A stretch of DNA of 64,000 nt from Hymenobacter sublimis (GTDB taxonomy: Bacteria > Bacteroidota > Bacteroidia > Cytophagales > Hymenobacteraceae). The stretch is taken from the NCBI RefSeq assembly GCF_023101345.1, contig NZ_CP095848.1, positions 2,485,297 to 2,549,296 of the forward strand, written 5' to 3'. The stretch's first letter is position 1; the number at the start of each line of letters is the position of its first letter. Position numbers and translations under genes: made by a program. The notes beneath the pieces were generated by a model that worked only from the letters and a program-made list of their open reading frames with translations, did no database searches and was not told the origin of the DNA. Below, one piece after another: positions 5,553 through 17,238 of this stretch.

Positions 5553-7136
5553 ATGCACACCAACTATTACTTTCTGCGCCAACTTGCGCCGGCTCTTGCT
5601 CAACAATTGGCCGGTTACACGGTAGCAACGTGCTTTTCGCAGGAGAAGGATGAATTGGTGATTGGCCTGACAAATGGTGCGCAGGAATTCTGGCTAAAGG
5701 CACACCTGGCCGCGGCTGGCCCCATGCTGGCGATGCCCGAATCGTTTCACCGGGCCCGGCAGAACTCTGTGGACCTGCTACCAGAACTGCTAGGCCAGCA
5801 AGTAGCAGCGGTGGCCGCTTGGCCTAACGACCGGGTGCTACAGCTAAGCTTTCAGAGTGGGGCCACTCTTTTGTTCAAGTTATACAGCACCCGACCCAAC
5901 GCGGTATTCCGCCCTACCCCCGAGGCGCCCGCCGAATTATTTCATCAGCGTTACACCGCCGATGCGGAGTTACTACCGGTGGTCGATGCTGCGGCCCCTA
6001 CCCCTCTCAGGCCTACTGAGCTGCCCGCCAATCCGCTTAAGGCCTACCCCAGCCTCAACGATGTGGCTTTGGCTTACTTGCGCACTCGCGGCTATGACCC
6101 CGCCCCGCTAGAAACCAAGTGGCAGCTTGTACGCGAAACCGTGCTGGAGCTGGAAAACCCGGCGGCTTTCTACATCATTCGCCTGGACGGCCGCACGCGC
6201 CTGAGTTTGTTGCCCGTGGGCGAGGTAGAGTACACCCTGCCAGCAACTGACCCCATTGGGGCGCTGCGTCGCTTCGTGCCGCTGCTGCTCAACCGCCGCG
6301 CCTACGAAGCCGAGTTACGGCAGTTGCGCCAGCAACTAGAAAAGCGCGCCGATGAAGCCGCTACCAGCGCCCAGCACGCCCGACGCCGCCTACACGCCCT
6401 GGAAAATACCGTGGGCTACCGCCAAACCGCCGACCTGATTATGGCCCACCTCACCCAGATTCCGGCCGGCGCCAAGCAGGTAGAAGTCGTTGATTTCTAC
6501 CAGGATAACCAGCCGCGCACGATCAAGCTTAAGCCTACCGAAACGCCCCAGCGCACGGCCCAGAACCTCTACCGCAAAGCCAAAAATCAGCAGCTGGAAA
6601 CCCGGGAGCTCAACGCCCGCGCCGAGCGCCGTGAAACGGAAGCCTTCTGGTGCTTGGAGCGTCTGGAAGAGTTAGCAGCCCTACCCGCTGGCGAGCTACG
6701 CACCTTGCGGCAGTGGCGCAAACAGCACGGCCTCGATCCAGCTTCGGCGGCCAAAGCAGCTCAAGAGCTGCCGTTTAAGGTATTCGAAGACAGCGGCTTT
6801 ACCATTCTGGTAGGCCGCAATGCGCAAAACAATGACCTACTCACTCAGCGCTACGCCCACAAAGACGACCTATGGCTGCACGCCAAGGACGTCACGGGTT
6901 CCCACGTGGTAGTGCGGCAGCGGCCTGGCCACGCGGTGCCGGCGCCGGTGCTGGAACGTGCCGCTCAGCTGGCTGCCTGGTACTCGCGCCGCAAAAACGA
7001 CTCCCTCTGCCCGGTCACGTACACGCCCAAGAAATTTGTACGCAAGCCCAAGGGCGCCATTGCCGGCCAAGTAGTAGTGGAACGCGAAAACGTACTGCTA
7101 GTAGTACCCGCCAATCCGTTTGAACGGGCAGAGTAA
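5553..7136 (+). CDS. NFACT/DUF814 family protein (RqcH/FbpA-like ribosome quality control homolog)
   Basis: C-terminal NFACT-R/DUF814 signature 'ILVGRNAQNNDLLTQRYAHKDDLWLHAKDVTGSHVVV', a coiled-coil middle region, and a size of ~530 aa. Confidence 0.7.
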   Translation: MHTNYYFLRQLAPALAQQLAGYTVATCFSQEKDELVIGLTNGAQEFWLKAHLAAAGPMLAMPESFHRARQNSVDLLPELLGQQVAAVAAWPNDRVLQLSFQSGATLLFKLYSTRPNAVFRPTPEAPAELFHQRYTADAELLPVVDAAAPTPLRPTELPANPLKAYPSLNDVALAYLRTRGYDPAPLETKWQLVRETVLELENPAAFYIIRLDGRTRLSLLPVGEVEYTLPATDPIGALRRFVPLLLNRRAYEAELRQLRQQLEKRADEAATSAQHARRRLHALENTVGYRQTADLIMAHLTQIPAGAKQVEVVDFYQDNQPRTIKLKPTETPQRTAQNLYRKAKNQQLETRELNARAERRETEAFWCLERLEELAALPAGELRTLRQWRKQHGLDPASAAKAAQELPFKVFEDSGFTILVGRNAQNNDLLTQRYAHKDDLWLHAKDVTGSHVVVRQRPGHAVPAPVLERAAQLAAWYSRRKNDSLCPVTYTPKKFVRKPKGAIAGQVVVERENVLLVVPANPFERAE

Positions 7137-7346: not shown

Positions 7347-7350
7347 AGAG

Positions 7351-7433
7351 TGCGCGCGGGGAGATTCGAACTCCCACACCCGAAGGCACCACCCCCTCAA
7401 GATGGCGTGTCTACCAGTTTCACCACGTGCGCA
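7351..7433 (-). tRNA. tRNA-Leu (anticodon GAG), class II with long variable arm; no encoded CCA
   Basis: The reverse complement reads GCGCACG-TG-GTGAAACTGGTAGAC...CTTGAGG (anticodon loop with GAG)...GGGAGTTCGAATCTCCC-CGCGCGC-A. Canonical D-arm and T-arm are present. Confidence 0.75.
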
Positions 7434-11340: not shown

Positions 11341-12744
11341 CTACACCCCGCCTTCCATGCGCACGATGCGCGGGCTAAAGGAGCCCAGCACATCCACCAG
11401 CTCAGTCTGGCTTTGCATCACGGCGTGAATGTCTTTGTAGGCCTGGGGCGCCTCATCGACGCCCCCGCCCAGCAGCTCAATACCGTGCTGTTGGAGGTAG
11501 CGGCGCACTTCGGCCTCGCCCAGCTCCTGCTTGGCCCGGGTGCGCGACATTTGCCGACCCGCGCCGTGGGAAGCCGACGACAAGGACGCCGCCTCGCCCC
11601 GCCCCCGCACGATAAAGCCGGGGGCCGTCATGGAGCCCGGAATGATGCCGAGCACCCCTTTGCCGGCCGGCGTGGCTCCTTTGCGGTGGACCACTACCTC
11701 CCGGCCGTCCATCAGGCGCTCTTTCCAGGCGAAGTTGTGGTGGTTTTCCACTTTGGCCAGGGGCCGCTCGCCGAGGGCTTTGGCCAGGCGCTGGTGAATC
11801 TGGTGGTGACAGGCCGAGGCGTAGTCGCCGGCTAAGTTCATGGCCGCCCAATACTCCTGTCCGGCTTCCGTGTCGAGGCCGAGCCAGGCGAGGTGGCGGG
11901 CTTCGGCGGGTAGCTGGCAGGTATCCTGGGCCAGTTTGGTGTAGTGGTTGGCGATGCTGGCCCCTAGCCCCCGGGAGCCGGAGTGCGAAAGCAACCCCAG
12001 GTACTGACCTACCGGCACGCCCAGCTCATTGGCGGGGTCGGTGATGTCGACCACGCCCCACTCCACGAAGTGGTTGCCGCCCCCGGAGGAGCCGATTTGC
12101 GCGGCGGCCGTGTCGAGCTTGTTGCGCAGAAAGGGAATTTCCTGGAACTCCGGGCGGTCGAGGACGGCGTGCCCCAGCTTCTGGCCGTGGCGGAATACGT
12201 CGCGGTTGCCGAATTTGGTGTGGTCCAGCAGCAGCTTACGCAGCTCCTGTACCCGTTGCTCCAGAAACTTAGGCGGCAAGGCAAACACCGACAGGGCCAT
12301 CCGGCAGCCAATGTCCACACCCACGGCGTAGGGAATTACGGCGTTATCCGTAGCCAGCACCCCGCCAATGGGCAGACCGTAGCCGTGGTGAGCGTCGGGC
12401 ATGAGGGCCCCAGCCACGGTTACGGGCAGCTTCATGGCCGTTTCCATCTGATGGATGGCACCCTGCTCAATGTACTCGGCGCCAAATACAGCGTATTCCT
12501 TGCGCTCCGTAAGGGCAATGTGCCGGCTGGGCGGGGGTAGCAAAGCGGCGGCCGTGTGGCTCCAGTCGAGGTGGGTGAGGTAGGTAGAAGGGTCAGCCAG
12601 CAGGCTTTTGAGCAGGGTTAGCTGGTCGGTTTGGGAAAGTTTTTTGAGGTGCTTGCGCTGCAGTTGAGCCAGCGCGAGTCCAATGGCCCGACCTTCCGGG
12701 AAGCCAAGCTGCCGAAGGTCGTTGCCGCGTAGTTGTGAGGCCAT
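11341..12744 (-). CDS. rtcB: RtcB family RNA 3'-phosphate/5'-OH ligase
   Basis: Hallmarks 'MPDAHHGYGLPIGGV', 'GSRGLG', 'HNFAWKE' and 'SHGAGR'; 467 aa. Confidence 0.9.
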   Translation of the reverse strand: MASQLRGNDLRQLGFPEGRAIGLALAQLQRKHLKKLSQTDQLTLLKSLLADPSTYLTHLDWSHTAAALLPPPSRHIALTERKEYAVFGAEYIEQGAIHQMETAMKLPVTVAGALMPDAHHGYGLPIGGVLATDNAVIPYAVGVDIGCRMALSVFALPPKFLEQRVQELRKLLLDHTKFGNRDVFRHGQKLGHAVLDRPEFQEIPFLRNKLDTAAAQIGSSGGGNHFVEWGVVDITDPANELGVPVGQYLGLLSHSGSRGLGASIANHYTKLAQDTCQLPAEARHLAWLGLDTEAGQEYWAAMNLAGDYASACHHQIHQRLAKALGERPLAKVENHHNFAWKERLMDGREVVVHRKGATPAGKGVLGIIPGSMTAPGFIVRGRGEAASLSSASHGAGRQMSRTRAKQELGEAEVRRYLQQHGIELLGGGVDEAPQAYKDIHAVMQSQTELVDVLGSFSPRIVRMEGGV

Positions 12745-12778
12745 GCGAATAAGAATGTACTAGAAGAAATTTTCGGCT

Positions 12779-12869
12779 GCGGAGCAACGGGCGAGTCGCG
12801 TATCCTGAGGGGTGGGTGTGCACCCGCAGTCAGGCCGAAGTAACGCGACCCTACGGCATCCGAAAGCCA
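12779..12869 (-). ncRNA. Short Y-RNA-like unit (YrlB-like: closing stem only, no tRNA-like module), 35 bp upstream of rtcB
   Basis: The minus strand has the 5' box GGATGCCGTAGGGTCGCG-TTACTTCG and the 3' side CGCGACTC...GTTGCTCC, which pairs with the 5' box. It shares the boxes of the longer units. Confidence 0.4.
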
Positions 12870-12979
12870 GAGAAAAAGAGCGGTTAGAAGGGTAATAAGG
12901 CGGACAGGCCCTTAGGTTTTCAGACGAAGTATGCCTGCTCCACGACACCTTCCGGCCGCTCAAGAGTATTCAAAAAAAT

Positions 12980-13127
12980 CTGTTCGGGGCAACAGGTGGG
13001 CGGCCCCTATATCCTGCTCTACCTTCTGAGCTACAGCCACCACCCAAGGGTAGCAACTGGTGGGACTCGAACCCACGACCCGGGCAACCACAGTGCGAAG
13101 TATGGTCGCCCTACGGCACCCGAACAG
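12980..13127 (-). ncRNA. Y-RNA-like (YrlA-like) unit 1 with tRNA-like module
   Basis: The minus strand reads, in order: 5' box GGGTGCCGTAGGGCGACCATACTTCG; T-arm GTGGG-TTCGAGT-CCCAC; acceptor-like 3' strand; linker; 5' strand with D-arm GCTC-AGAAGGTA-GAGC; hairpin GGGGC...GCCCC; 3' box CTGTTGCCCC. Confidence 0.5.
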
Positions 13128-13149
13128 ATAGTACCAGCGGTGAGGTAAT

Positions 13150-13275
13150 CAGCGAAAAGCGTTCTGTAAACTGGGTGCTTTTGACCACTCAGCCACTTGC
13201 CCGCAGTCGGACAAGACGGGATTCGAACCCGCGGGCTACAGAAGGCCAACCAACGAAGTAGCGCTTTCTTCCGAC
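13150..13275 (-). ncRNA. Y-RNA-like unit 2 (variant closing stem GAAAGCGC/GCGCTTTTC) with tRNA-like module
   Basis: T-arm GCGGG-TTCGAAT-CCCGT; a 7-bp acceptor-like hairpin CTTGTCC-G-ACTGC-GGGCAAG; a class-II-type D-arm GCT-GAGTGGTCAAA-AGC. Confidence 0.45.
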
Positions 13276-13299
13276 ACTCACCTTTTTATTTTCCGTGGG

Positions 13300-13441
13300 G
13301 GTGGGGCTAACAAGCACCAGGCCTTTTATCCTGCTCTACCTGACTGAGCTACAGCGGCCACCGAAGCAGCCACCAGCGGGATTCGAACCCGCGACCTGGG
13401 CGTTAAGAGCGCGAAGTATGGCCTGGCTACGGCACCCACTC
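13300..13441 (-). ncRNA. Y-RNA-like unit 3 with tRNA-like module
   Basis: 5' box GGGTGCCGTAGCCAGGCCATACTTCG; T-arm GCGGG-TTCGAAT-CCCGC; D-arm GCTC-AGTCAGGTA-GAGC; 3' box GCTTGTTAGCCCC. Confidence 0.5.
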
Positions 13442-13462
13442 CCGCGGAAAAAACAAAACCTA

Positions 13463-13610
13463 CCGGGGCAACAAACGAGCAGCGAAATGACCGGCCCGAA
13501 GGCCGTTCTGCTCTACCTAGCTGAGCTACAGTCCAAGAGAAACAACCTGATTGGACTGGCCCGAATCGAACGGGCGACCCGAAGTAACGCTGCCCTACGA
13601 CACCCGGCAG
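13463..13610 (-). ncRNA. Y-RNA-like unit 4 with tRNA-like module
   Basis: 5' box GGGTGTCGTAGGGCAGCGTTACTTCG; T-arm GCCCG-TTCGATT-CGGGC; perfect 7-bp acceptor-like stem CAGTCCA/TGGACTG closed by a 15-nt loop; D-arm GCTC-AGCTAGGTA-GAGC; UUCG-capped hairpin CGGCC-TTCG-GGCCG; 3' box TTTGTTGCCCC. Confidence 0.5.
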
Positions 13611-13636
13611 GGTGATAATGCGGCTGACCCTCTGCG

Positions 13637-13762
13637 TTGGGGCAACAAGCGGCTGGCGAGTACCCCGCAGCCGGAACTGCGGGATGGGAATCGAACCCTA
13701 CACCGGGGATGCCGGTGTATTCAACCAAGACGAAGTAACGCCTGCCTACGGCACCCAAACGG
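13637..13762 (-). ncRNA. Y-RNA-like unit 5 (degenerate tRNA-like module)
   Basis: 5' box GGGTGCCGTAGGCAGGCGTTACTTCG; a T-loop-like GGGTTCGATTCCC with a weak stem; a 7-bp hairpin CCCGCAG-TTCCGG-CTGCGGG; 3' box GCTTGTTGCCCC; no D-arm. Confidence 0.4.
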
Positions 13763-14375
13763 GCGGAAGTCAGCCGGTTTGGAGCGGGCCGCCGAAGCAC
13801 AGCGCTTCGGCGGTAAGCCGCCCCGGCCGGCGGCAGCCATCAGGTGGTCAGCCGCCGTCCCAAGCAGTAGAAGCCATAGCTTCTGGGAGTACTTATGTTA
13901 CCATACGAGGAGTTTGGTAAGAGAACTTCATGGCTATGAACGTTACAAAAGATGATTATGATATACTGAAAAACGTAAAAAACTACGCTCCAGCTATATT
14001 TTAGCCATTTTACGGGGTAACGGCGTTTCGAACTTCTGGCACGGTTCTGTTTGGACTTCTACCAGTTTGCCGTTTTTCAGCGGGCCACCGGGTTTTCGTA
14101 GTTGCCTCGTGCCAGGGCGTCGAGGGTGCTATGGGCTATTTATTGTTGTAGTTCTCGGTTCATTAGAGTAGGTATTGTCGGGCCGTAACCCGGGAGTGGC
14201 ACCGCTTTTCGGGTTGCCGCAAGCCACTCCCGGGGCCGCGTGGTTTAGGTAGAAATAATGGGATAGGAATGCTGGAGAACTATGCAACACGGAGGATAAT
14301 TAGTTGACAGACATGTTTCTATGATGCCTGATTACTTGATCTGATGTCAGTACTACCGCAGCATCTGGCGCTTCT

Positions 14376-14490
14376 TTGCCCGGCTGTAGAGACGCGACAC
14401 TTCGCGTCTTGTCATTGCTGACGTTATTTAGACTGCGCGGTTCCTGGTCGTTCTGACGCCGAGACGCGAAGTGTCACGTCTCTACAGCTG
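14376..14490. repeat. Pair of inverted hairpin repeats (GAGACGCGA-AGTGT-CGCGTCTC family) between the Y-RNA array and the rsr stop
   Basis: GTAGAGACGCGACACTTCGCGTCT at ~14385 and AGACGCGAAGTGTCACGTCTCTAC at ~14465, in opposite orientation. Related copies lie at 16951-16982 and 17028-17050. Confidence 0.55.
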
Positions 14491-14562
14491 TTCTATTGTT
14501 AGCCGGGCGAGATGCTTCGCAGGGCGCCGTGTGACAGTTAAATGGGATATTCTAGTTGCCCA

Positions 14563-16134
14563 TTACAACACTATCTGTTCGATTTCGGTAAGAGCGAATC
14601 CGCCATTGTCGAGGGCGGCCAGCACGTCGAAAATCTTATCCGACCAGCCGGCAATCAGGGCTGCACCTTGTTCGGGGTGTACTTGCAGGGGCGCGGTGCC
14701 ATGACCGGCTAGGTCGAAGAGGTATAGCTGGGCCTGTGGAGCAACGGTGCGCCGGTACTCCGCCCATTCTTTGGCCATGTTGGTGCCGTTGAAGTGAGAG
14801 TTCCAGAGCTGGCAGTCGGTGAAGAGCATTACCTTATCTACTACCTCCCGGCGGCGGCGCAAGTCCTCGATAACCAGGTAGCCGTTAGTGCTGTAGCCTA
14901 CCTCGCCTTCGCGGCGGTAAAACTCCTGCACGTTGCGCAAAATGGGGCCACGGGGCAGCGTCAGCCGCTTCCAGGTGTCGCCGAACATGCCGGTTACCAC
15001 GTTCTGGCAGCGGCTCTGCAGGAGCATGCCCAGCACCAGGCCCACGTCGTAGTACAGCACTTTGCTGCGCTGAGAAATAGGCTGTTGCATGGAGCCCGAC
15101 ACGTCACAAGCTACCACTACCCGAGTTTCCGAGCCGAAGCCGCGCAGGTTGGCGGCGCTGTGGCCGATGGCCGCTTCCAGGGCTTCCAGCACCTGCGGCA
15201 CCGGGCTCTGGCGCAACCCCACTGCCATCAGCACCGACTGCAGCGTGCCTGCTTCCAAAGCCTTTACCTCACGGTAAGCGGCCAGAAAGCGGAAGGGCAG
15301 CTGCTTGCTGCGGGCTACGGCCCGCGCATCGGCGAGGGTGGCACACACTTGCGCTACTGCCTCGGCTGGTACACCAGCCTGCAGGATGTTGCGCAGGTTG
15401 CGTAGCAGGGCCATGTAGCCCAACTTGCCGCTACCAATTAGCTCCGTCCACTTCTGGCGGAAAGCGGCCGCCCGCTCTGCCTCCGACGTAAATCCTACCT
15501 GTCCCAGAGCCGACAATTCAGTCTCCCAGGTGTAGGGCGTAGGGAGGGTGCCGGCCACCAGCTGGTTAAATAAGGCTTGCTGGCCTTCGTCGGCGGGGCG
15601 CGGGTGCACCAGGAACAGGGCGTCGCGGAGGCGCACGGTGCCGGCCCGGTCGTACTTGGCCAGTTGGTAGCCGTCGAAGCGGTTGAAGGCTTGGGCCAAC
15701 CCTTTCTGCACCTGCTTGGAGAGACGGTTGAGGGTTTTGAGGCCGGTGCGGCCGTTGGCTTGGGCGTAATAGGCCAGCAGCTCCGTGATTTCGTCGGGGC
15801 GCTGTACCACACGAGCTACCAGGCGGCTGACCAGGTTGGTACCCTGGTGCAAGCGGGCCAGCTCTACGGCCAATACCAGCGGCACGGAGCGCAAATACAG
15901 CCTTTCGCGGGCATACACAGCTAGGCGGGCCACGAACTCCGCATCGTTGCGAGCCACTAATTCGCGCAGACGCACTAAGCGGGTATCGGCGGTTTCGTAG
16001 AACTGGTCGCTGAGGGCGGCAGTAGCCACGGCGGCGTACAGCTCCAGCGCGGGAGTGAGCATAGTAGCCGGTGCACCCTCGTGGTTGAGCACCGGAGCCG
16101 GAGTAGGCGGGCGGAAGGGGAAGTTGAAACGCAT
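14563..16134 (-). CDS. rsr: Ro60-related protein Rsr (TROVE domain + C-terminal vWA domain)
   Basis: N-terminal TROVE-like region 'YARERLYLRSVPLVLAVELAR'; C-terminal vWA with MIDAS 'VVVACDVSGSM'; ~523 aa; sits next to rtcB with structured ncRNA units between them. Confidence 0.75.
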   Translation of the reverse strand: MRFNFPFRPPTPAPVLNHEGAPATMLTPALELYAAVATAALSDQFYETADTRLVRLRELVARNDAEFVARLAVYARERLYLRSVPLVLAVELARLHQGTNLVSRLVARVVQRPDEITELLAYYAQANGRTGLKTLNRLSKQVQKGLAQAFNRFDGYQLAKYDRAGTVRLRDALFLVHPRPADEGQQALFNQLVAGTLPTPYTWETELSALGQVGFTSEAERAAAFRQKWTELIGSGKLGYMALLRNLRNILQAGVPAEAVAQVCATLADARAVARSKQLPFRFLAAYREVKALEAGTLQSVLMAVGLRQSPVPQVLEALEAAIGHSAANLRGFGSETRVVVACDVSGSMQQPISQRSKVLYYDVGLVLGMLLQSRCQNVVTGMFGDTWKRLTLPRGPILRNVQEFYRREGEVGYSTNGYLVIEDLRRRREVVDKVMLFTDCQLWNSHFNGTNMAKEWAEYRRTVAPQAQLYLFDLAGHGTAPLQVHPEQGAALIAGWSDKIFDVLAALDNGGFALTEIEQIVL

Positions 16135-16949
16135 CGGATAGAAAAATCAGGCAGTGAGTACTAATGAATGACGGCTATAACCAGAATAAATAACTCGTAC
16201 TTTTTACCTAGGAAAGCACACACTTTTTCCAGCATAATTCACGCACGAATTATTAAATAAAACTTTAGAAAATCAAAGACAATACTTTCCCTTTACACCC
16301 CAAAAATAGGATGATCTTATTTTAAATAACCAGATAAATTAATTTGACTAAGCCAAGTTTACACCGTGTTTGCTTACGCAGAGGTGCTAGCCTTTAGCCA
16401 TTGCTGCTACTCCGGTTTACTACCGTTTTGCCAAGTCGCAACGACTGATAGTCGCGGGCAATTGAGGGTAATACGGATGGAGTGCGAGGGGTAAAGAGAA
16501 TAACATCATGGGAAGTAGGATAGATAGAAGATGAAAACAAAAACGCCCGAATCTGATATGATTCGGGCGTTTGCGGAGGATGGTTCTAGAGTAGAAACCT
16601 TACCTGTCTGCTGGCGCGCCGAACCCCGGCTGAATCTCCCGATCCAGCTTGCTGAGTGATGGCATATCTTGATTAAAGTGGCGGCACATGACAGGAAAGG
16701 TGTAAAAGTCGTTAGCGTTTGGGCTGTTGAACGCGACAAAGGTAGAAAAGTTATTTTCTTACCAACAAGTTTGGTTCATAAATTTTTAAAATATTTTTCA
16801 CACATAAATTAAATGCCCTTTCAAAGGTTTATTTCAAGGTTTTTATTAATTATTTAGAAAGAATAAAACTAAATTTTTACCCTTTTGCTTTACCAGACAA
16901 ACGATATTTCATTCTGATTAAGGAGTTTTTGCATAGTGTGTAACGGTGT

Positions 16950-17060
16950 AGCAGCAGACGCGCATTTCGCGTCTGCTACCAGAACAACCTGCTTAGCGCC
17001 ACATGCGGTACAGACCGTTCAACGAAGAGACGCGAAGTGTCGCGTCTCTGCATATCAGTC
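16950..17060. repeat. Two hairpin repeats of the GACGCG...CGCGTC family, located past the 5' end of rsr
   Basis: GTAGCAGCAGACGCGCATTTCGCGTCTGCTAC and GAGACGCGAAGTGTCGCGTCTCT. Confidence 0.5.
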
Positions 17061-17238
17061 CTGTTCACCTCAGCTCTAACCTTGTGCAGCTGCTGTTGCA
17101 GCTAAAGCGGGGGTAGCGTCGAGGAAATGACGGGGTTAGTAGATGTTTTTAGCGCCCCGGAAAGGCCAGGAGTAGGTTTGAGCACTGATCTACTAAACCA
17201 GGTCAGCGTTTACTTCTTCTTTCTTCCTTTACTACCCT

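Follow-up and report, generated by a model that had tools for sequence, protein, structure and literature searches.

An array of seven predicted Y RNA genes, some with circularly permuted tRNA-like modules, between rsr and rtcB in Hymenobacter sublimis

Results

Organization of the Locus

The window analyzed in this study, a 64-kb stretch of Hymenobacter sublimis DNA, contains a locus in which rsr, an array of seven Y RNA units and rtcB follow one another on the minus strand. The first gene of the locus, rsr (14563..16134, minus strand), encodes a Ro60-related protein of 523 aa with a TROVE ring and a vWA domain, and its product matched the Pfam families TROVE (PF05731, 3.1e-29) and vWA_Ro60 (PF25045, 2.2e-05), the latter with 24.9 bits, slightly below the family cutoff of 27.7 bits. 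The Rsr of Hymenobacter sp. HSC-4F20 is 94% identical to it. Directly downstream of the array lies rtcB (11341..12744, minus strand), which codes for an RNA 3'-phosphate/2',3'-cyclic-phosphate ligase of 467 aa (Pfam RtcB, PF01139, 3.3e-83). The seven tandem units span 12775-13764 of the minus strand and lie 0.8-1.8 kb downstream of rsr, within the distance and strand used as the criterion for YrlA (less than 4 kb from a Ro60/TROVE gene, same strand). A gap of 31 nt, in which there is no terminator, separates the last unit from the start codon of rtcB. Only one Bacteroidetes-type -7 box was found, upstream of rsr, and U-tracts occur 3' of units B, E and F; a scan for sigma-70 promoters and terminators gave counts at or below the shuffle expectation.

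A MAFFT alignment of the five long units misplaced units A and D and the acceptor region of unit B, so the covariance model used here (R1) was seeded instead with 12 units of the C/E type. Scanning the 64 kb with this model returned exactly seven units, all in the array, and nothing else at E<0.01. The array runs past the interval of 12975-13765 in which the first-pass annotation had placed five units, and two short YrlB-like units were added. Each unit has a conserved terminal stem, with GGUGYCGUAG plus UACUUCG on the 5' side and GYUUGUUGCCC on the 3' side. The MFE z-scores of the single units were modest, ranging from -0.3 to -3.2 (unit E, -3.19).

Architecture of the Seven Units

At the stem's far end, units B to E carry a YrlA-type module that would fold into the L-shape of a tRNA without a free CCA end (all unit coordinates refer to the minus strand). 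In unit B (13459..13613; R1 match of 75.5 bits), the T arm (13559-13575) is followed by an acceptor-like stem (CAGTCCA 13552-13558/TGGACTG 13529-13535), U8A9, the D arm (13510-13526) and a GGCC-UUCG-GGCC hairpin 3' of the D arm. Unit C (13297..13445; 140.6 bits) comprises an anticodon-arm-like hairpin (GCG[CUCUUAA]CGC, 13400-13412), the V loop AGGUC, the T arm (13376-13392), an acceptor-like stem (TGGTGGC 13369-13375/GCCGCTG 13352-13358, 7/7 with three G-U pairs) and the D arm (13333-13349). Unit E (12980..13129; 156.2 bits) likewise has an anticodon-arm-like hairpin (GCA[CUGUGGU]UGC, 13084-13096), the V loop GGGUC, a T arm (13060-13076), an acceptor-like stem (CAGTTGC 13053-13059/GTGGCTG 13034-13040, 7/7 with three G-U pairs) that extends to 12 bp, and a D arm (13016-13031). 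Unit D (13136..13287; 46.7 bits, E 1e-09) is a divergent YrlA type, with a T arm (13216-13232), an acceptor-like stem containing one G-U pair (CTTGTCC 13209-13215/GGGCAAG 13196-13202) and a class-II-like D arm (GCTGAGTGGTCAAAAGC, 13177-13193).

Unit A (13634..13764; 39.2 bits, E 7e-08) consists of a T arm and a closed helix and has no D arm. Its 5' motif GCCGTAG begins at 13752, and besides the Ro-type stem it has a V hairpin of 7 bp (13700-13718). An arm with a T-loop (13685-13699) comes next, and then the acceptor-like hairpin (13664-13683), closed by pairing of CCCGCAG (13677-13683) with CTGCGGG (13664-13670). The two short units, F and G, are Y RNAs of a YrlB-like kind. The former (12883..12958, 76 nt; 22.4 bits, E 1e-03; 5' motif at 12946) has the Ro-type stem and UACUUCG without a tRNA-like module; the latter (12775..12869, 95 nt; 36.8 bits, E 2.7e-07; 5' motif at 12857) has the Ro-type stem and an extended hairpin at the place where the others have the tRNA-like module.

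Acceptor-Like Pairing and Covariation

Five T-arms lie in the interval 12975-13765, and each is followed by a 7-nt segment for which a fully pairing 7-mer (7/7) stands a few bases farther downstream. The first-pass annotation had read these modules as circularly permuted, in the order T-arm, acceptor 3' strand, loop, acceptor 5' strand and D-arm. This observation is confirmed: the order is present on the minus strand in units B-E, the complementary 7-mers quoted for three units (A, B and D, the last with its single G-U pair) are all there, and the two further units said to pair with wobbles are C and E. The second 7-mer had been placed immediately before the D-arm, which holds for units B-E, where it stands two bases ahead, and does not hold for unit A, since no D-arm exists there. 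The chance level was taken from non-cognate 7-mer combinations drawn from 165 T-to-D modules, which paired 7/7 in 2.35% of draws, so that five of five window units would pair by chance with a probability of ~7e-9. An alignment-free test of the 165 modules gave 7/7 pairing in 82 and 6/7 in 32 (69% with at least 6/7), and 121 distinct 3'-strand sequences occurred among them. As the first-pass annotation had pointed out, the differing acceptor sequences argue against a simple duplication of one tRNA.

With the R1 model, 424 units were detected in 81 rsr loci. The copy number ranged from 1 to 8 between loci. All of the 300 matches listed, from these 424, lay on the rsr strand, and a separate nhmmer scan gave 346 matches, none of them on the strand opposite rsr. 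In one locus (L001), another gene intervenes between rsr and the units. Three species with Rsr proteins 92-94% identical kept the unit order, and the acceptor changes among them were compensatory. The closed hairpin of unit A was altered with compensation in L001-L005 (for example, CCTGCGG/CGCAGG); orthologues of unit B had CAGGCCT/AGGCCTG and UGGC/GCCA, that of unit C in L001 had CCAGTGC/GCACTGG, and those of unit D had CTTGCCC/GGGTAAG and CCGGCCCG/CGGGCCG. Orthologues of unit F in L001-L005 showed compensatory changes in P1/P2, and orthologues of unit G were found in L001-L003.

Among the best 150 units, 92.6% of cells were paired, vs. 66.9% after shuffling and at most 49% with slid partners, and double-sided changes occurred in 36 of 38 pairs. 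The acceptor-like helix was 90.4% paired and changed on both sides at 7/7 pairs, so the check that had been set for the permuted pairing, covariation across homologous loci, showed it to be held as the sequence changes. These counts come from a model-fitted alignment of related sequences and are inflated for both reasons; the alignment-free test is independent of the alignment, and the slid-partner control was run on the same fitted alignment and keeps the relatedness. The T helix was 98.9% paired with the consensus G-N-N-G-G UUCGANU C-C-N-N-C, and the T arm is present in window units A-E. The Levitt pair 15:48 was G:C in 123 of these 150 units and A:U in 12, besides which only a handful of further letter combinations occurred. 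Conservation extended to the U8-A9 linker, to A14 and a D-loop GG, to UUCGANU as the T loop, and to RGGUC as the V loop with its last pyrimidine. A first 5-bp pairing, P3, was dropped, as helix 3 was 77% paired and only its two inner pairs held; it was replaced by 2 bp plus a local hairpin, with only one clearly covarying pair (40:51).

Relation to the YrlA and tRNA Models

An Rfam scan of the window at the gathering cutoff returned nothing and missed even the tRNA-Leu called by ARAGORN; therefore, bit scores from the E-value mode were used. The top matches in the region were to YrlA (RF02553), at 38.7 bits for unit E (full length), 38.3 for unit B and 35 for unit C, with 16.6 bits for unit D, and the cutoff of 69 was not reached. 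None of ~55 units in 11 related loci reached it, and scores were similarly low (36-43 bits) for the YrlA-like RNAs that neighbor Ro genes of phages, the cutoff being an operational and not a biological definition. Both arms, T and D, and the linker UA agree with the YrlA consensus, and a D stem-loop after the UA linker, in the order T arm, acceptor-like stem, D arm, was found in each of the units B-E. It is lacking in units A, F and G, which therefore count as Y RNAs without being complete YrlA. For YrlA, GNCGAA(N0-1)G has been published as the 5' motif and is presumed to contact Rsr; in its literal form it is absent from the units. A variant with one substitution, GYCGUAG, was near-invariant at the equivalent position in the best 150 units. 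Of the seven units in the window, six have it, with G for A in unit F; unit D has GUCGGAAG as its 5' motif. The literal GCGAA was seen in a Rhizobium phage YrlA-like RNA.

The Rfam tRNA model (RF00005) matched the array at 25.1, 21.7 and 17.3 bits with large insertions, all below the cutoff of 29. The tRNA-Lys(ctt) called by ARAGORN at 13366-13437 was rejected as false, as it equals the 5' half of unit C with its anticodon at position 31. The acceptor pairing in the manner of this call, between GGUGCCG and the 3' acceptor strand, was found by eye at 6/7 in unit C only and not in B or E, and was put down to coincidence.

An Anticodon-Arm Look-Alike

A look-alike of the anticodon arm, with a composite stem of 5 bp and a 7-nt loop, was present in 112 of the 150 best Bacteroidota units against 4.35 expected under the null. 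The loop bears the Y32-U33...R37 signature. In the window, a 3-bp hairpin with a 7-nt loop completes it in units C and E; A, B and D are without it. After in-silico de-permutation, ARAGORN called tRNAs in 114 of the 150 units, a figure that depends on a self-designed construct and a permissive program; de-permuted unit C was called as a 77-nt tRNA-Lys(CUU) and unit E as a 76-nt tRNA-His(GUG). Among three phage YrlA-like RNAs, a tiny sample, the look-alike was absent from two and ambiguous in one, which suggests that it is not a general feature of YrlA. The unit-C paralogue is kept across Hymenobacter and carries the tRNA-Lys loop CUYUUAA. An origin of unit C from tRNA-Lys was rejected, as its identity to real tRNA-Lys (0.68) was no better than that to other tRNAs and only the loop is Lys-like.

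Discussion

In this study, we characterized a locus in which, very probably, seven Y RNA genes stand in tandem between rsr and rtcB. The first-pass annotation had preferred to read the permuted modules as tRNA mimics within Y RNAs, and our analysis agreed with it at each point examined: the TROVE/Ro60 context, the best matches to YrlA (below the cutoff), the YrlA order of the arms and the covariation across 150 homologues.

The look-alike of the anticodon arm suggests a further, tentative reading, which we regard as possible but rather unlikely, that the YrlA-type paralogues of Bacteroidota mimic a whole tRNA and not only its elbow, with the Ro stem inserted in the anticodon stem. The Ro stem would then fall between positions 28/29 (sometimes 30/31) of the 5-bp anticodon stem. 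If the anticodon-like arm is functional, two roles are conceivable for the differently "labelled" mimics beside RtcB. They could serve enzymes that damage or mend the anticodon loops of tRNAs as decoys, sensors or guides, or they could themselves be the material which RtcB-dependent processing turns into tRNA-sized molecules, as has been raised in the YrlA literature.

Carried further, the same features could describe genuine circularly permuted tRNA genes, in which the long stem would be excised and the ends ligated (by RtcB, for example), after which RNase P and RNase Z would open the acceptor loop, so that tRNA-like molecules of canonical or split form would result. RtcB belongs to the ligase type of tRNA splicing and is encoded next to the array, the arm found in 112 of 150 units sits at the anticodon position, and all four arms can be recovered in units C and E, with 114 of 150 ARAGORN calls after joining in tRNA order. 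In addition, the YrlA of M. smegmatis is cleaved by RNase P and receives CCA (PMC4201824), and processing of YrlA toward tRNA was explicitly considered by Wang et al. (10.1101/312249). However, the "intron" would be the most conserved part of the units and is also found in F and G, where a tRNA module is missing altogether. Between close species, the "anticodon" of orthologous E units reads GUG, UGG, UGC, UUG or UUC, and the acceptor stems differ across species with Rsr 92-94% identical; an RNA with a stable identity in decoding would not shift in this way. Acceptor helices here are loop-closed and 8-12 bp long, and since Wang et al. (10.1101/312249) regard most acceptor stems of YrlA as poor substrates of RNase P, the same may be expected of them. 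Moreover, no bulge-helix-bulge motif was seen by eye at the junction, no splicing endonuclease is known in bacteria (10.1101/312249), and the evidence from de-permutation comes from our own construct with the permissive ARAGORN. We therefore hold genuine permuted tRNA genes, which had been named at the outset as the alternative, to be quite improbable; a decoding function is unsupported and very unlikely, and it is the variant with processing that is kept as the rival.

The array might instead act in cis, as a structured leader in the mRNA of rtcB (for example, an attenuator that senses tRNA or binds a protein) and not as stand-alone RNAs. Its end 31 nt from the rtcB start codon without a terminator, the sole -7 box upstream of rsr and the U-tracts after B, E and F are consistent with such a leader. 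They have to be weighed against seven modular copies, each with its own closed terminal stem, a copy number that varies from 1 to 8, and units parted from rsr by another gene in L001, and no terminator/antiterminator alternative was evident. The RNAs encoded by the equivalent operon of Salmonella accumulate as free Y RNAs bound by Rsr (PMC4201824), which also argues against a leader, and we judge it highly improbable.

A row of ordinary tandem tRNA genes or pseudogenes could look permuted merely because the T arm of one precedes the D arm of the next, a kind of false positive that Chen et al. cautioned against (PMC4201824). The canonical sequences of the T and D arms, the weak Rfam tRNA matches of 25.1 and 21.7 bits, the ARAGORN tRNA-Lys call and the real tRNA arrays in some distant rsr loci would fit with it. 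Yet from a D arm to the next T arm there are ~140 nt holding two Y-stem strands, where a tRNA has an anticodon arm of ~25 nt, the model scores do not reach the cutoff of 29, and the partner of the 3' acceptor strand is the 7-mer directly downstream of it (at least 6/7 in 69%), not the one upstream as a tRNA needs, a pairing which compensatory change maintains. Tandem tRNA genes are excluded, because both geometry and covariation contradict them. That the complementarity is due to chance, or that the units are a repeat family without function, might be suggested by the G+C-rich sequence with many G-U options and the modest fold z-scores of some units. This has a negligible probability given 7/7 pairing in five of five window units against 2.35% under the null, double-sided changes at 36 of 38 pairs over 150 homologues, and the fact that in 81 loci the units are strictly linked to rsr and agree with it in strand.

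Returning to the Y RNA array, we propose that it would be transcribed together with rsr and rtcB and that the transcript would be cleaved to release the Y RNAs one by one. The Ro60 ring is tethered or gated by Y RNAs, and by analogy the bulged terminal stem with its conserved motifs would be the docking site through which each of them binds the Rsr (Ro60) ring. The tRNA-shaped end may then serve as a tether or gate which recruits a partner that binds the tRNA elbow. PNPase is the partner in D. radiodurans and Salmonella, and PNPase or the adjacent RtcB repair ligase could be the candidate here.

The locus is relevant to genome annotation, as its seven RNAs are overlooked by Rfam at the curated cutoff and partly called as tRNA-Lys by ARAGORN; in related genomes, units are called tRNA by Rfam, and hundreds are affected across Hymenobacter and other Bacteroidota. 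It also offers a natural series, with four full mimics that have different acceptor helices, one without the D arm, two without the module and two with the look-alike of the anticodon arm, which beside an RtcB repair ligase is useful for asking which features of a tRNA matter. The four-arm versions bear on two hypotheses in the literature, one deriving YrlA from tRNA transcripts and the other holding that some YrlA might be processed towards tRNA-like forms.

Circularly permuted tRNA genes occur in Cyanidioschyzon merolae, other algae and one archaeon. As in these, the 3' half comes first, the acceptor stem starts out as a closed loop and both ends pair at the anticodon stem, and units C and E have all four arms at canonical spacing. 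The array differs from the algal genes, which have a disposable junction of the BHB type, in its long conserved stem of protein-binding type, common to units without the module, and in anticodon and acceptor identities that are unstable between orthologues. The Band-7-associated b7a-tRNA (Burroughs and Aravind, 2016, cited in 10.1101/312249) is likewise a tRNA-shaped non-coding RNA linked to RtcB and occasionally to Rsr; going by that description, it is authentic-like and unpermuted and has no Ro-binding stem. Unit A resembles Yrn1 of Deinococcus radiodurans, which is also linked to rsr and has a T arm without a convincing D arm, but Yrn1 differs in the orientation of its arms to the 5' end and in a stem-loop between the arms at the anticodon position (PMC4201824), whereas unit A has the YrlA orientation. 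YrlB is a short Y RNA of Salmonella in which a tRNA-like domain is missing. Like it, units F and G have little length, share the motifs of the Ro stem with their YrlA-type neighbors and belong to an operon-like array; unlike YrlB, to which they are similar in motif only, they are present in two copies and lie downstream, not upstream, of the YrlA-type units.

The closest system is YrlA (RF02553) of Salmonella Typhimurium, in the order rsr-yrlBA-rtcBA (Chen et al., 2014; crystal structure in Wang et al., 2018), and the layout and linkage to rsr and rtcB described for YrlA in the literature (PMC4201824; 10.1101/312249) match those of the array. Both have rsr as a neighbor on the same strand and rtcB as another, a stem of the Ro-binding type formed by the 5' and 3' ends, and an effector end that runs from the V loop through the T arm, the closed acceptor-like stem and UA to the D arm. 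The sequences of the T and D arms are near-identical to the consensus, covariation is seen at the Levitt pair, and of the "YUAY" kink motif the UA is kept. YrlA as defined by Chen et al. is also bound by Rsr in vivo and receives pseudouridine 55 and dihydrouridine from TruB and DusA. By contrast, the array scores about half of the Rfam cutoff, has GYCGUAG in place of GNCGAA(N0-1)G, strongly conserves the 3' strand GYUUGUUGCCC as well, holds 4-5 YrlA-type copies per locus, compared with one or two typical of published loci, and has acceptor-like helices of 7-12 bp. The YrlA of S. Typhimurium "lacks the anticodon loop", whereas many units here, C and E of the window among them, have a look-alike of the anticodon arm. 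We take the seven units as additional members of an already known class of Y RNA, in which this array stands out for its large size and the unusual completeness of its tRNA copies.

Organization of the array and its neighborhood

A motif scan with the 5' signature G-N-C-G-(N)N-R-G ... N-A-C-Y-T-C-G revealed seven consecutive occurrences on the minus strand, starting at 13752, 13601, 13433, 13275, 13117, 12946 and 12857 (units A to G of the Y RNA array, respectively). The repeat unit is therefore bigger than its tRNA-like part, and the array continues beyond 12975, where the first-pass annotation had placed its left boundary. Upstream lies rsr (14563-16134, minus strand), whose Ro60/Rsr product contains a TROVE domain, matches vWA_Ro60 more weakly and shares 94% identity with Rsr of Hymenobacter sp. 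HSC-4F20; the RtcB ORF (11341-12744, minus strand) starts 31 nt past the array end. Searching 12700-16700 on the minus strand, we found the sole Bacteroidetes-type -7 box (TAnnTTTG) at 16301-16308, ∼170 nt 5' of the rsr start. Unit G and rtcB have no terminator between them, and U-tracts occur 3' of units B, E and F. Judged from these signals, the array would fit co-transcription followed by processing, the pattern of the rsr-yrlBA-rtcBA operon in Salmonella. A cis-acting rtcB leader, the other role considered at this position, is argued against by the closed modular units and their variable copy number.

The neighborhood showed several further features. Between rsr and the array, a 0.8 kb interval contains nothing but the initial ∼54 codons (14080-14238, minus strand) of a gene for a microbial-type PARG (PF10021), which is intact at the same place in Hymenobacter sp. 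HSC-4F20 (L001 7659-8591) and carries a ∼760 bp deletion here. A 26-nt palindromic element, AGACGCGAAGTGTCGCGTCTCTACAG, forming the hairpin GAGACGCG/CGCGTCTC, has three copies around rsr (14384-14409, minus; 14462-14487, plus; 17028-17053, plus), two of them as an inverted pair, with 0 expected by chance, and looks like a REP-like repeat. The ∼1.1 kb upstream of rsr (16135-17230) contains no ORF of at least 80 aa, a very AT-rich stretch (∼16780-16900) and a strong terminator-like hairpin (16541-16572, minus strand). About 4 kb past rtcB lies a gene for an NFACT-domain (RqcH-like ribosome quality control) protein (5553-7136, plus strand), with ferritin-like, MOSC and OsmC protein genes in between, which suggests a stress-related neighborhood.

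Acceptor-like pairing and covariation

Five T loops of tRNA type (GGTTCGANTCC) are found within 12975-13765, read 5' to 3' on the minus strand. In all five modules the 7 nt 3' of the T stem pair at 7/7 positions with a 7-mer 6-16 nt downstream, namely CCCGCAG/CTGCGGG in unit A, CAGTCCA/TGGACTG in B, TGGTGGC/GCCGCTG in C, CTTGTCC/GGGCAAG in D and CAGTTGC/GTGGCTG in E. In units B-E the second 7-mer leads through UA or UG into a D arm, and unit A has no D arm; the earlier description, in which the partner segment precedes a D arm, thus holds for the pairing throughout and for the D arm in four units. The D arm of unit D (13177-13193, minus strand) is class-II-tRNA-like, GCTGAGTGGTCAAAAGC; such an arm also occurs in the second unit of the related rsr loci L004 and L005, and that of L004, GCGAAATTGGTAGACGC, closely resembles the D arm of the tRNA-Leu encoded in the window. 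Separate units may imitate separate tRNA classes.

An alignment-free test covered 165 T-to-D modules, pooled from the window together with 80 related loci, mostly Hymenobacter. Cognate 7-mers paired at 7/7 positions in 82 of these modules and at 6/7 in 32, versus 7/7 in 2.35% of draws of non-cognate combinations. The 3' acceptor strands comprised 121 distinct sequences, and poorly pairing modules were mostly regex artefacts or true tRNA arrays of distant loci. Direct ortholog comparisons, which like this test are free of model-fitting bias, revealed CCAGTGC/GCACTGG in L001 for unit C and CAGGCCT/AGGCCTG in L004 for unit B.

We also built a covariance model, R1, seeded with 12 aligned C/E-type units (window and L001-L006) and comprising six helices: terminal P1, P2, a short anticodon-stem-like P3, T arm, acceptor and D arm. 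It gave exactly seven matches in the 64-kb window, all inside the array (E 156, C 141, B 75.5, D 46.7, A 39.2, G 36.8 and F 22.4 bits), the best match elsewhere having E ∼0.8. Across the 81 sources there were 424 matches at E <=1e-3, ∼5 per locus; the 300 listed were all on the rsr strand, and an independent nhmmer search with the 5' part alone yielded 346 matches, 0 on the opposite strand. Among the best 150 of the 424, whose counts are biased towards R1 as the alignment was fitted to the model, 92.6% of cells were paired (66.9% when shuffled, <=49% with slid partners), and 36 of 38 pairs showed both-sided changes. In the same 150, the acceptor-like helix was 90.4% paired with all seven pairs covarying, and P1 and P2 also covaried strongly.

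tRNA-like tertiary signature and anticodon-arm look-alike

The Levitt pair, whose covariation also served as a signature in earlier work (Chen et al. 2014, PMC4201824), covaries in the best 150 units (G15:C48 in 123, A15:U48 in 12 and a handful of other combinations). Further tRNA-like conserved positions are the U8-A9 linker, A14, D-loop GG, T loop UUCGANU and V loop RGGUC. The Y stem carries near-invariant GGUGYCGUAG, NUACUUCG and GYUUGUUGCCC; UUACUUCG or UUACUUCC, including a conserved UA that is kink-forming in the Salmonella structure, is present too in YrlA-like RNAs beside Rhizobium phage and Streptomyces phage Ro genes.

Units C and E contain a hairpin of 3 bp that begins at the G of UACUUCG and has a loop of 7 nt (GCG[CUCUUAA]CGC and GCA[CUGUGGU]UGC, minus strand), and the CC directly 3' of it pairs with a GG past the D arm and A26. 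These two pairs covary strongly (CG 75, UA 46, GC 15; CG 72, GC 49, UA 15), and the hairpin stacked on them places a 5-bp stem with a 7-nt loop where a tRNA has its anticodon. With zero mismatches allowed, 112 of the best 150 units conformed, against a shuffled expectation of 4.35 (maximum 11), though the units are phylogenetically non-independent; this combination was a sharp mode relative to other stem and loop sizes. The look-alike comprised 67 distinct arm sequences and was found in 10 of 15 non-Hymenobacter units. Its loops carried Y32 (107/112), U33 (103/112) and R37 (105/112), the most frequent, CUUUUAA (26) and CUCUUAA (9), being tRNA-Lys loops. When the pieces were rejoined in tRNA order, an artificial construct, ARAGORN called a tRNA in 114 of 150 units, including a 77-nt Lys(CUU) for unit C and a 76-nt His(GUG) for unit E. 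The local hairpin has just one clearly covarying pair, and the loop overlaps an invariant motif in ∼24 units.

Decoding permuted tRNA genes, the alternative left standing by the first-pass annotation, are very unlikely: the best-conserved part is the terminal stem, common to units F and G that have no tRNA module, and both 'anticodon' and acceptor sequence differ among orthologous units of very close species. The units may nevertheless be processed towards a tRNA-like form. Tandem tRNA genes were rejected, since ∼140 nt filled by both Y-stem strands separate each D arm from the next T arm, the 3' acceptor strand pairs with a downstream rather than an upstream 7-mer, and the Rfam tRNA model scored the array at 25.1, 21.7 and 17.3 bits (cutoff 29).

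tRNA predictions at rsr loci

ARAGORN's tRNA-Lys(ctt) call at 13366-13437 (minus strand) covers the 5' half of Y RNA unit C. Such 5' halves were also mis-called at L010 8424-8492, L070 8058-8245 and L001 9525-9597; ARAGORN's miscalls, as tRNA-Lys and tRNA-Pro, put the anticodon at position 31, and some units score just over the cutoff of the Rfam tRNA model. In these genomes such miscalls are a trap for annotation. Genuine tRNA genes, in arrays of 10-17, adjoin rsr at certain loci of Chitinophagaceae, Ferruginibacter and Bacteroidetes MAGs (L069 744-2047; L070 52-1427; L079 3515-4728 and 8475-10038), and the phage Ro genes examined (L081, L082) also lie among tRNA genes. A gathering-mode Rfam scan of the whole window returned zero matches, even for a normal-looking tRNA-Leu(GAG) predicted by ARAGORN (7350-7432, minus strand); such a scan can miss true RNAs.

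Relationship to known Y RNAs

YrlA RNAs are recognized by a same-strand location close to rsr, a 5' motif GNCGAA(N0-1)G, stem-loops ordered V, T, AS (the closed acceptor-like stem-loop) and D, and tRNA tertiary nucleotides, with tandem tRNAs as the chief false positive (Chen et al. 2014, PMC4201824). Set against the published accounts (Chen et al., Wang et al.), the modules as described in the first-pass annotation match the textbook picture of YrlA. In E-value mode, units E, B and C matched YrlA (RF02553) best among Rfam families (38.7, 38.3 and 35 bits; cutoff 69), with the T arm, the UA linker and the D arm aligning to its consensus; the phage YrlA-like RNAs beside Ro genes likewise fall under this cutoff. 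The array units agree with the descriptive definition of YrlA-type Y RNAs except in two respects, a 5' motif that varies by one base and Rfam scores below the cutoff. Units F and G resemble YrlB, the short Salmonella Y RNA without a tRNA-like domain, and unit A, having no D arm, is reminiscent of Yrn1 of Deinococcus radiodurans.

Unlike units C and E, the Rfam YrlA consensus has no anticodon-arm look-alike hairpin; S. Typhimurium YrlA 'lacks the anticodon loop', and the look-alike was absent from two of the three phage YrlA-like RNAs examined. The 'less-conserved' V stem-loop that some species carry 5' of T (Chen et al. 2014, PMC4201824) may be the same arm read as a variable arm. The array thus adds YrlA-type Y RNAs to an already known RNA class, in which its size, module diversity and complete four-arm mimicry are worth following: 355 putative YrlAs in 276 genomes (Chen et al. 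2014, PMC4201824) imply that a locus typically has one or two, whereas we found seven Y RNA units here and ∼5 per locus over the Hymenobacter set.
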